Positions 6,470 to 63,138 of a DNA stretch of 64,000 nt are shown piece by piece. The position numbers and the translations under genes were made by a program. The notes beneath the pieces were generated by a model. The model saw only the letters and a list, made by a program, of their open reading frames with translations, was not told the origin of the DNA and did no database searches. This DNA is from Octopus vulgaris (Eukaryota), in the NCBI GenBank assembly GCA_951406725.2, contig OX597825.1, positions 2,046,001-2,110,000 on the forward strand, in the 5' to 3' direction. Numbering within the stretch: the first letter of the stretch is position 1; every line of letters starts with the position of its first letter.

Positions 6470-6660
6470 TATCATGATATATCACTAACCACTACACATT
6501 CTTTATTTTCTCTCTTTGTTTCCTTCTGTGTTCCTTTCTGTGGAAGAGCGTAGGCTCGAAACTTTAAAACTTTTCCTCTTCCAGAGCGTTATACTAATAC
6601 ATATATTTGTTGTCTACAACACCTGTCTTCGTCGTTTGTTCTTTTGTGAATTCTTCCTAT
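6470..6660 (+). mobile_element. Short repeat with a variant hammerhead motif, copy 1
   Basis: TTT-CTGTGGA-A-GAGC-gtag-GCTC-GAAAC-TTT-AAA at 6535-6568. Homologous to the inverted copy at 7745-7930. (TA)n flanks. Confidence 0.65.
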
Positions 6661-6789
6661 ATATATATATATATATATATATATATATATATATATATAT
6701 ATATATATATATATGTATATGTTTTTTTAAATACAAATAAATGAAAGAATGGAGTTGAACGACGAATTAACAAATTTCCTTTATTTTAT

Positions 6790-6870
6790 TTTGGACATAT
6801 GTTTCGAAGGCTGCATATTCCTAATTTCGAAGGAATAAGGGGTGTATTATGCCGCCTTCTCATCAGGAAA
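6790..6870 (-). ncRNA. Hammerhead ribozyme type I, inverted copy
   Basis: TTTC-CTGATGA-GAAGGC...GCCTTC-GAAAC-ATAT-GTC-CAAA. The first stem I pair is mismatched. Confidence 0.75.
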
Positions 6871-7122
6871 AGTAAGGAACTTATGTCAGCATGAAGATGC
6901 ACAAAAACTTTTAGATGACTGCCCACAAAAAAACACACAAAATTCCACACGATAGCACGTGATCTCTGCCCTAGGCAGGTAGCTTCAACCGTGTTTTTCT
7001 GACGTGAATTTGCTACCCAGGTATCGGTTAACCGAATTATTCATAATAAGATAATTCATTCAACTACTCAATTATTCATATACAGTCTCCTTGAGATCCT
7101 GCTACCTTAACCGATACCGCAA

Positions 7123-7280
7123 ATGGAGTTGTTCGACACTAACGCATCCCATAAGGACATACCTATATCACCAAAAGAAACCTTCCTTAAGGAAATTGTT
7201 AACAAAACAAATGCATTTATCAACCGCATTAGATGGCTCGCCTTCTTCCACGATGATGAGGACATAAAACGAAAGAAACA
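7123..7280 (+). pseudogene. Truncated N-terminus of a Penelope-like element ORF
   Basis: SHKDIPISPKETFLKEIVNKTNAFINRIRWLAFF resembles the SxKNIPIP...FIxRMRWKAFF start of PLE RT/GIY-YIG proteins (recognised from memory). No RT domain follows. Confidence 0.7.
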
Positions 7281-7359
7281 CTCATTATCGCTATGGGCTC
7301 CGTATGGGCAGTCATCTAAAAGTTTTTGTGCATCTTGATGCTGACATAAGTTCCTTACT

Positions 7360-7440
7360 TTTCCTGATGAGGAGGCGGCATAATGCACCCCTTATTCCTT
7401 CGAAATTAGGAATATGCAGCCTTCGAAACATATGTCGAAA
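7360..7440 (+). ncRNA. Hammerhead ribozyme type I with extended stem II, canonical core
   Basis: Stem I TTTC(7360-63)/GAAA(7437-40); CTGATGA 7364-70; stem II GGAGGC/GCCTTC extended by GCATA/TATGC; GAAAC-ATAT-GTC with palindromic stem III. Predicted cleavage after 7436. Confidence 0.85.
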
Positions 7441-61500: not shown

Positions 61501-61849
61501 TGATAGTCATTCTTTAGGACAGATCTGGTTGTGCACGTGCACACATAGGATAAAATGCGCTCCGTTAATGATCATTTCGTTCTTTTATTAAAGATACCTG
61601 GAAGAATATTCTTCAGTGTCCATTTTAAAGAAGGCGTCTGTGATTTGAGAGAGATTTCGCAACAATTTCGCGCAGTTTGACGAACAACAAAGATACTCAG
61701 TCGTTAAGATTTATGACTACTTACAAGTTTTCTCCCAAGTATATATGCTTATATCAGCATCCGAGTTTTCCTTTACCTTTTATGTATAATATAATATAAA
61801 TAGACAGAATATGGAGTTATATAAATCTTTTGCGTAACACTATCTTTCT

Positions 61850-62060
61850 CTTATACTTGTTTCAGTCTTCAGAGAAGGGCAATGCTGGGGCAGCACATTG
61901 AAGTGTTTAGTCGAACGAATTGATCCCAATACTTGCTCTTAATCCTGGGTCCTATCGTATTAAAATTTTAGCTCAACCGCGTTGTTACGGGGAATTAAAG
62001 ACACAAACTACTGTTGCCAAGCGGTGGTAATGGGTTCAAATGCAAACACAAAATACGCGC
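61850..62060 (+). mobile_element. SINE family C, decayed
   Basis: tacttgtttcagtc...atgctggggcagc...tttagtcgaacgaattgatccc...caagcggtgg. Confidence 0.65.
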
Positions 62061-62259
62061 GCATAGACATGCTTACACCTCTGTCTGTCTGTCTGTCTGT
62101 CTCCCTCTCTCTCTCTCTCTCTCTCTCTATATATATATATATATATATATATGTATATATATATACAGACATAGGTAAGTATGTAAGGATATGTTTTCGT
62201 ACGAACTTTTCTCCCTATATATATATATATGTATATATATATATATATATATATATATA

Positions 62260-62470
62260 CTCTTTAACTTGTTTCAGACATTTGACAGTGGCCATGCTGG
62301 AGGACCACCATTTGTCGACCAAATCGACCGCAGGAATTATTCTTTGTAAGCCTGGTATTTATTCTATTGGTGCTTTTTGCCGAACCACTAAGTTACGGGA
62401 ACCTAAACGAACCAGCATCGGTTGTCAAGCGATGTTGGGGGACAAACACTGACACAAACACACACGCACA
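62260..62470 (+). mobile_element. SINE family C
   Basis: cttgtttcagacatttgacagtggccatgctggag...gccgaaccactaagttacggg...catcggttgtcaagcgatgttggggg. Confidence 0.85.
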
Positions 62471-62517
62471 TATATATATATATATATATATATATATATA
62501 TATATATATATATATAT

Positions 62518-63138
62518 ATCGTGACGCATATTTGCCATTTGAATATGGCTAACCCCTAAGGGTGGATGCTACTGTAGTTTGTAGCCCCAGGAAGATATCT
62601 CCTCCAGCTGGCTATAGACACACTATCTGTGCCCTATCAGTATTTGTGAAGGGAAGTCATCCTTCCCGTCTGGGGCTACAAACTACAGTAGCATCCACCC
62701 TTAAGGGTTAGCCATATTCAAATGGCAAATATGCGTCACGTTGTGTTACCGCTGCTGTTTATAACTCACTCTGAGATTTATCATTGTTTGATTTCACTTT
62801 TTCAATATCAGTGTCAATCGACACTGGAAAAAGTATATGTATTTGTGAGGGAAACTGAATTCTCGTCGACAACTATGATTATCACACGCTGATGATAGGT
62901 AAATACCTTGAAACTCGAGTCCGTGTGTATCATAAGTTGAAGACGGGAAGGATGACTTCCCTTCACAAATACTGATAGGCCACAGATAGTGTGTCTATAG
63001 CCAGCTGGAGGAGATATCTTCCTGGGGCTACAAACTACGGTGGCATCCACCCTTAGGGGTTAGCCATATTCAAATAGCAAATATGCGTCACGATGTGTTA
63101 CCGCTACTGTTTATAACTCGCTCTGAGATTTATCATTA
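62518..63138 (+). mobile_element. Retrozyme-like HHR element: inverted segment plus ~1.33 units of a 352-bp repeat, in (TA)n
   Basis: 62518-62671 is the reverse complement of 62941-63094. 62671-62786 repeats at 63023-63138. One HHR, no credible ORF. Confidence 0.9.
62870..62939 (+). ncRNA. Hammerhead ribozyme type I with long stem I
   Basis: CACACG(62883-88)-CTGATGA-T-AGGT-aaat-ACCT-T-GAAAC-TCGA-GTC-CGTGTG(62922-27). Stem I extends by TATGAT/ATCATA and CAAC/GTTG. Predicted cleavage after 62921. Confidence 0.9.

Follow-up and report, generated by a model that had tools for sequence, protein, structure and literature searches.

Hammerhead ribozyme repeats in a window of the Octopus vulgaris genome as probable relics of Penelope-like retrotransposition into TA repeats

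Introduction

The elements with predicted hammerhead ribozymes (HHRs) scattered through a 64,000-nucleotide stretch of the Octopus vulgaris genome (contig OX597825.1, positions 2,046,001 to 2,110,000; hereafter the window) are, judging from their sequences, probably relics of Penelope-like retrotransposition: two are stubs of coding Penelope-like elements (PLEs), and four represent retrozyme families that lack an open reading frame (ORF) and were likely copied in trans into TA repeats. The four ORF-less families, termed C, D, F and H, share with PLEs a pattern of two fixed ends and TA targets, and are therefore likely to have been copied by Penelope enzymes. An intact element of the Hydra clade of PLEs, family J, has an end pattern like theirs and provides a model for the class of helper.

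The questions in play are the origin of the pseudo-LTRs (pLTRs) and inversions of PLEs, the role of the hammerhead and the identity of the enzyme that moves animal retrozymes. They become testable in a genome that holds many families with countable footprints, including intact J with its 727-aa ORF and the young family C with its 616-nt unit. Earlier papers have already reported HHRs in PLEs, treated retrozymes as derivatives of PLEs and described TA targeting, the two start sites and the circle model; the contribution of the present analysis is an insertion footprint that links retrozymes to PLE enzymes, together with a countable rule of one site per arm and its reading as two priming events.

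Hammerhead motifs in the window

The window is AT-rich, microsatellite-rich and without long genes, and belongs to an assembly of 2.8 Gb in 227 contigs. An earlier, sequence-only reading had placed ten main HHR cores in it, and all ten were recovered within tens of bases as type I HHR cores (table 1). The type I arrangement of CUGAnGA, GAAA and NUH with helices I–III is present in A, C, D, F and H. The unit lengths it gave (575, 615, 564 and 352) also hold, and the direct repeats and inverted arms of A and H are visible when the window is compared with itself. It had described three inverted 5′ segments; those of A and H are clear, while the D arm is just 25 nt long.

A strict type I descriptor gave four matches in the window (7364, 8081, 62889 and 39713) against a mean of 0.03 and a maximum of 1 in 100 dinucleotide shuffles, and five against 0.35 when one core mismatch was allowed. 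The match at 39713 is probably due to chance, and the core at 11789 was missed because its 81-nt loop II exceeds the descriptor limit. Elsewhere in the genome, seven matches in 208 kb of DNA flanking PLE insertions (2.2 per 64 kb) make the window typical of such regions rather than exceptional, these flanks not being random DNA. An Rfam scan of the window was dominated by microsatellite-driven miRNA models, and the hammerhead family was absent among the 150 listed of 260 matches; genome-wide, the Rfam hammerhead model scored over its cut-off just six times among 73 scored of 263,217 candidates, so such motifs are easily missed.

Several weaker sites had also been proposed. Those at 6034, 6535, 7836 and 18345 do lie in dispersed repeats, but a complete HHR is absent from their window copies, and the site at 23976 has no second copy among 208 loci. 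As an HHR, 6034 was rejected: its CUGAnGA lies 3′ of GAAAC rather than 5′, and its homologs lack a cut triplet.

Each search of the octopus's own genome scored the best ~40 candidates, so that all family counts are samples. The loci comprise 30+30 for H and 25+20+30 for C (overlapping sets in both), 30+12 for A, 25+3 for B, 30 each for D, J and K, 25 for E and 20 for F.

Table 1. Features of the window, with positions counted from its first nucleotide.
Feature	Positions	Strand	CUGAnGA core (strand)	Remarks
Short TA-abutting repeat	6485..6646	+		Degenerate minimal HHR related to that of E
Second copy of the repeat at 6485..6646	7759-7918	-		
A, internally deleted Hydra-clade PLE copy	6729..7657	+	6866 (-), 7364 (+)	Full-length relatives L067 and L071, 80-96% identity
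A, inverted 5′ arm	6729-6925			Ends at site 1
A, direct arm	6934-7657			Ends at site 2
B, 5′-truncated end of a longer element	7968..8205	-	8081 (-)	GUA site
C, ORF-less unit of 615-616 bp	11412..12079	+	11789 (+)	Unit plus 53-nt repeat ending at site 1
D, ORF-less unit of ~565 bp	12270..12935	-	12541 (-)	Sister of C
E stub, pLTR end of an ORF-bearing PLE	13017..13216	+	13097 (+)	Minimal HHR, core CCGACGA
F, ORF-less unit of ~467 bp	26098..26485	-	26301 (-)	Sub-unit-length copy; GUC site
E, longer copy	32903..33234	+	32978 (+)	130 nt beyond the usual end, toward the ORF
G	48430..48690	+	48492 (+)	Minimal HHR, mutated in the window; boundaries approximate
Protein remnant	52727..52816	-		30 codons matching Hydra-type PLE proteins, best E 2e-4
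H, ORF-less unit of 352 bp	62520..63138	+	62889 (+)	(TA)n on both sides
H, inverted arm	62520-62671			Ends at site 1
H, direct arm	62670-63138			Ends at site 2, ~45 nt further

Remnants of coding Penelope-like elements, and elements B and G

The elements had been read as unrelated, independent and non-autonomous throughout. This does not hold for A and E, copies of which run into PLE ORFs elsewhere in the genome, nor for C and D, which are sisters. In the window copy of A the first ~60 codons of the ORF are joined at ~7272 to the 3′ pLTR. Other A copies match the query either over its first 341 nt or over its last 386 nt, and the ~3 kb between these ends is an ORF for reverse transcriptase (RT) plus GIY-YIG endonuclease; the supposed 575-bp unit thus arose by deletion within a coding PLE and, of 30 loci, is present only in the window copy. 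The HHR at 7364 has its predicted cut after 7436 (GUC), and stem I of the second HHR, at 6866, is damaged. The encoded protein carries RWL, DKT, CxxC and CxH motifs and, instead of a CxCx5C linker, an Asn/Ser-rich stretch; A still ends in (TA)n.

Two copies of E (L135 and L139) continue into RT and GIY-YIG coding sequence, the motifs of which we take to be Neptune/Poseidon-like; in three others, independent deletions have left 'units' that vary in length. The NUH rule fails in this family, position 17 (H17) being G in 26/29 copies; the longer window copy has its core followed by GUG and is not TA-bounded. The longest copies of B share ~1.4 kb of upstream sequence with no tandem unit, and no B ORF was found in three long loci. 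One B locus (L344) holds a PLE ORF fragment on the other strand, not linked to B. Copies of G outside the window read GAAACGUU with a 5-bp stem I.

Families without an open reading frame

C, D, F and H have the layout of non-LTR retrozymes: a unit of a few hundred base pairs, low in GC (33–41%), with one HHR and arranged in partial or full tandems. At the 20–60 loci sampled per family, copies pass into the next unit across one unit junction and never into an ORF. The units gave no match to 105 Hydra-type proteins, and their longest ATG-initiated ORFs are 35–63 aa. Two consecutive HHRs, from which a monomer could be released, occur in C arrays of 2–13 units and in H copies such as L005, L007 and L009.

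C is a young family (97–99% identity) with arrays of up to 13 units outside the window. Its HHR folds as type I, with an 81-nt AU-rich stem-loop II and a predicted cut after 11889 (GUU). D is old (78–87%), and the stems of its window copy are mutated; most of its copies read GAAA-CGCG-UA with a 6-bp stem I. The F copy ends at site 1 against (TA)n and has a weak stem II, and H carries a canonical type I HHR with palindromic CUCGAG and a predicted cut after 62921 (GUC). An alignment of C with D covers ~135 nt and scores 76 against a shuffle maximum of 36; the homology begins upstream of site 1 and takes in the tail. K, a third sister family, is laid out in the same way, and similarity between C and F is marginal (32 against a maximum of 30).

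An intact core plus UH is present in 27/34 distinct copies of A, 13/15 of C, 20/32 of D, 18/21 of F and 23/37 of H, and core variation in D and E is concentrated at the free N7 position. U4C is found in 11/37 H copies, and the window copies of D, F and G carry mutated HHRs. Changes in the stems are mostly one-sided among copies, the exception being a two-sided G-C to A-U change in stem II of A (4/34 rows); between families the stems are entirely different, yet they still pair. Circular folds of C, H and D were more stable than those of shuffled sequences (at 20 °C, with a rough shuffle), a comparison given no weight here.

Insertion ends and TA targets

Circularly permuted copy ends had been expected, with fixed ends named as the result that would speak against the model. 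Permutation was rejected: H, C, D, F, B, K, A and J each terminate at two fixed sites, and only the 5′ truncation points scatter. The spacing of the two sites is ~45 nt in H, ~70 nt in J, ~80 nt in B, ~100–130 nt in C, D, F and K and ~150 nt in A. For three inverted H arms the end falls at a third, minor site (unit positions 34–35). Two fixed 3′ ends, which delimit a tail, 5′ truncation and an inverted 5′ arm, together the marks of PLE insertion, are all present. Of the sequence-only reading, the proposal of mobilisation into (TA)n by a PLE-type enzyme is supported, as are the presence of several ORF-less families, copies longer than one unit and 5′ inversions.

Most of the motifs in the window are bounded by TA repeats, and the predicted adjacency stood up against a SINE-like control. 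(TA)5 is present at 69–100% of mapped ends (37/50 and 18/26 for the two H ends, 15/17 and 31/31 for C, 23/23 and 10/10 for J), compared with 0/58 and 3/50 at control ends, the boundaries of which may be inexact, and a background of 5–6%. Short TA/AT overlaps were noticed at several ends, by eye and without a control.

A second set of H copies was selected on the last 194 nt only. Its arms end at site 2 in 27/30 cases and at site 1 in 2/30, with one of the 30 internally deleted. The predicted HHR cut is run through by 26/30 arms; the four others begin 5–25 nt 3′ of it and none at the cut itself. With no pile-up of 5′ ends at the cut, a cleaved linear monomer was rejected as the main template of H.

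Inverted insertions and the pairing of sites

Where both arms of an inverted insertion end at a mapped site, they almost always end at different ones. This was so in 26/27 cases for H and 17/17 for K, numbers inflated by queries that forced a site-2 arm, and in 3/3 for J. In C the sites are mixed at 13/13 simple loci, and one compound locus has two mixed pairings and one 1/1 pairing. Only the C arrays and J were picked independently of their ends, and the nine C arrays chosen by length are all mixed. For D, 7/8 inversions were mixed by eye, the scripted counts being noisy. Inversions with an end at neither site are omitted from these tallies (10/33 rows for H and 14/28 for C). In PLE copies described elsewhere, the tail is usually at one end only [PMC8557442, PMC3846280].

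The template

Pieces of one insertion resemble each other more than pieces of different insertions do: divergence within and between insertions is 0.7 and 1.6% in C, 2.4 and 4.8% in H, 7.4 and 10.4% in D and 0.36 and 0.72% in J, and inverted arms are as close to their partners as direct ones. Subfamily variants are common to a partner piece in 69% of cases in C (546/789) and 78% in H (436/562), against 20–25% across loci. Many mosaic haplotypes exist in C, each of them uniform over all units and both arms of its locus. The four longest C arrays show shared variants with a period of two or three units, from local duplication, which can also homogenise C units.

Haplotype uniformity is compatible with a bottleneck at the monomer stage, for instance a circle, but homogeneous source arrays would agree with it as well. 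On the patterns of variation, we somewhat favour a circle or otherwise reiterated monomer as the template. Read-through of the cut site, together with one haplotype per insertion, makes a circular-RNA step plausible.

A model for the helper enzyme

Family J was recovered with an unnamed homolog as query and gave 62 scored matches, 60 of them without an internal stop and mostly with 727-aa frames. Its protein has RWK, DKT, a CxCx5C linker, CxxC and CxH, a C-terminal GIY-YIG domain and no CCHH. The element carries an HHR, targets (TA)n and ends at its two sites in 34/37 tallied cases, the other three being locus-edge cuts. The J and A proteins are 37% identical over 484 aa; the linker is present in J and not in A. 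DKT, GIY-YIG, absence of CCHH, a (TA)n target and an HHR, which mark the Hydra clade [PMC8557442], are found in both (with RWL in A), and on these motifs, which the clade call rests on, J and A are Hydra-clade PLEs. For the PLE proteins, sequence searches of Pfam and PDB returned nothing meaningful.

The likeliest helpers of C, D, F and H are Hydra-clade enzymes, an assignment made on the insertion footprint only. The ends of these families show no significant match to those of A or J, the two autonomous Hydra families examined, and no terminal match to ORF-linked sequence among the loci sampled; nor did these loci yield any autonomous element with the ends of C/D/K, F or H. A search for the C/D helper through K found 0/30 loci running into an ORF. 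An unrelated Hydra ORF lies near one K locus, on the other strand. Since its ends are unlike those of C, D, F and H, J is a model for the helper rather than the matched helper.

Alternative explanations

That the HHR motifs arose by chance in DNA rich in AT and microsatellites has a negligible probability. The match at 39713 does look like chance and the weak sites lack the full anatomy, but the shuffle control and the retention of the motifs in dispersed families, each with >1,200 first-look candidates, rule it out for the main sites. It is very unlikely that all families are 5′-truncated or internally deleted autonomous PLEs moved in cis, with no self-propagating non-autonomous element among them. 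This description holds for A and E, where the deletion 'units' of E are independent and differ in length, and B represents one end of a longer element. At the sampled loci, by contrast, copies of C, D, F and H cross a single junction into a next unit and never enter an ORF; for C and H the explanation is already unlikely. The inverted arms, in turn, might each be a fold-back of one cDNA by self-priming, with the tail trimmed off one end. Self-priming has been proposed for rotifer PLEs [PMC3846280], a fold-back would yield a single haplotype automatically, and the arms are nested, as it would leave them, in 32/37 classifiable inversions. The other five (H loci L241 and L246; C loci L219, L221 and L225) are not nested, so not all inversions are fold-backs; the junction positions of the two arms are usually tens to hundreds of nucleotides apart, and in vitro, cutting and extension occur on both strands of the target [PMC11167929]. 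We regard fold-back as an improbable general account.

A stronger contender, which we consider a real possibility though one short of our preference, keeps the same PLE enzyme and has it read linear, uncleaved transcripts of tandem arrays, with no circle and a dispensable HHR; the units would be homogeneous because the source arrays had been homogenised by local DNA duplication. In vitro, HHR mutants insert and uncleaved RNA dominates [PMC11167929], and 8/9 Xenopus dimers remained uncleaved [10.64898/2026.07.22.740005]. The long genomic arrays of C with their signs of local duplication, the mostly non-NUH cores of E and the frequency of U4C in H agree with it. H arrays, however, reach at most ~2.4 units per arm in the sampled loci, yet copies of more than one unit arise; the many mosaic haplotypes of C are each uniform across both arms; and cores are intact in most copies of A, C, D, F and H, with variation falling on the free N7 in D and E.

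A possible mechanism

Under the main reading, the GIY-YIG nuclease would nick (TA)n, and the RT dimer would start at two internal RNA sites, one for each DNA strand, giving the rule of one site per arm. The two cDNAs would stop at random and join through an overlap of a few bases, producing head-to-head inversions. As template we envisage RNA that was uncleaved or had been re-ligated, most likely in the form of a monomer circle derived from copies with two HHRs; inserts of more than one unit would be regenerated from such a circle, and local duplication likely lengthened the longest arrays further. A more far-reaching proposal, put forward tentatively as a conjecture whose chances are somewhat below even, is that HHR circles without a protein are copied by a Hydra-clade dimer working on one RNA circle, its subunits at different sites and on opposite strands of a nicked TA repeat. 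If true, the action of a dimer on a circle would explain pLTRs, one-sided tails, head-to-head inversions and the tandems of retrozymes, and the footprints would be the first insertion evidence that animal retrozymes are passengers of PLEs.

Comparison with known systems

The comparison draws on portions of the cited papers. Our literature search, outside which lay most subscription papers, Repbase and supplements, found no paper on HHR retrozymes of cephalopods and none that maps PLE tail sites on retrozymes. A repeat annotation of octopus reports active Penelope-like families, and its main text contains neither 'ribozyme' nor 'hammerhead' [PMC13282606].

HHRs in the pLTRs of PLEs were described by Cervera & de la Peña in 2014 [PMC4209133], who found many divergent families per genome, as here, and proposed the circle model for more-than-unit insertion. 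Palindromic helix III, an extra base 5′ of stem II, opposite-strand pairs and mostly solo, truncated copies, as here, also feature in their account; the host is different, and conceptually nothing in the portions consulted differs. Metazoan retrozymes, including those of mussel, were later reported with PLEs as candidate helper (Cervera & de la Peña 2020) [PMC7229834], and retrozymes, mainly of vertebrates, have been interpreted as non-autonomous PLE derivatives (Li, Clavereau & Pollet 2026) [10.64898/2026.07.22.740005]. As in C, D, F and H, these non-LTR retrozymes are ORF-less units of low GC with one type I HHR, ranging from monomers to multimers; several HHRs in the octopus differ from them in a stem-loop II of 50–80 nt. 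Both studies argue from co-occurrence and pLTR similarity, and in the sections consulted, retrozymes are not mapped for PLE tail sites, inverted 5′ arms or TA-repeat targets; footprint mapping belongs to the present analysis.

Among PLEs proper, rotifer elements have a one-sided tail and Asn-rich inserts, and their pLTRs are sufficient in trans [PMC3846280]. Hydra-clade elements (Craig et al. 2021) agree with J in all listed motifs, the HHR and the (TA)n target, and differ from A, which lacks the CxCx5C linker; the same study describes non-autonomous Chlamys elements and, in the portion consulted, lists no non-autonomous Hydra derivatives [PMC8557442]. The closest biochemical counterpart is PAc, a Poseidon PLE of the anole (Frangieh et al. 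2024), which starts reverse transcription at two internal sites and in vitro does not need HHR cleavage [PMC11167929]. As in the octopus families, the two fixed ends of PAc delimit a tail and cleaved RNA is not the main template; both strands are extended, and a dimer is predicted. The tails differ in length, ~45–150 nt here compared with 30–40 in PAc, and so does the use of the two start sites, which shows no strand bias in PAc, whereas in the octopus insertions each arm almost always has a site of its own [PMC11167929].

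Insertion into TA tracts

Five different elements separated by TA tracts are stacked at window positions 6217-8273, and this stack is one microsatellite hit by repeated insertion; elements are likewise stacked between TA tracts at L004, L020, L044, L100 and L146 (L-numbers denote loci elsewhere in the genome). Four long arrays of family C, an ORF-less hammerhead ribozyme (HHR) family, are also bounded by TA. They contain 5-13 units each, with an inverted 5′ arm in three of the four and variants that recur with period 2/3, and are probably retro-insertions in transition to satellites. 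The SINE-like repeat of the window served as the TA-adjacency control. The long palindromes or terminal inverted repeats are probably MITE-like DNA elements.

Features in the window and related loci
Feature	Location	Strand	Remarks
Minimal HHR-like motif, additional to the sites noted first	window 18950-19005	-	CUGACGA...GAAACGUU
Dispersed repeat adjoining TA	window 5990-6216		copies in L098, L177, L025, L313
Abundant SINE-like repeat	window 551-775		~14 other copies, e.g. 14234-14430, 27193-27374, 52305-52479
Long imperfect palindromes or terminal inverted repeats	window 48919-49099, 49294-49528, 50387-50487, 58220-58496, 21165-21411
Family C array	G000:C1:120155384-120163475 (L209)		further arrays L210-L212
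Family A protein-coding copy	L067:4741-7239	-
Family A protein-coding copy	L071:903-3314	+

Hammerhead variation

The minimal HHR-like motif has no second copy among 208 loci. In the dispersed repeat (copies 76-95%), the GAAAC hairpin precedes CUGAnGA; this may represent one more Penelope-like (PLE-type) end, in which the ribozyme fold is rearranged or of a different kind. In family H, 11 of 37 copies share a U-to-C exchange at core position 4, which marks a subfamily, and six copies have the cleavage triplet GUA instead of GUC. A separate HHR family, with a long stem-loop II and a CGAUCG palindrome, occurs at L062, L063 and L066 and exceeds the Rfam Hammerhead_1 cut-off.

Element ends and (TA)n targeting

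In an uncontrolled comparison by eye, 2-5 nt of TA/AT lie within the element at most fixed ends of families J, C, D, A and H, which suggests possible short primer-template pairing. The CxCx5C linker has a proposed role in guiding (TA)n targeting. Copies of family A, a Hydra-clade PLE, have (TA)n at their ends, although the encoded protein lacks this linker and has long Asn/Ser-rich stretches in its place.
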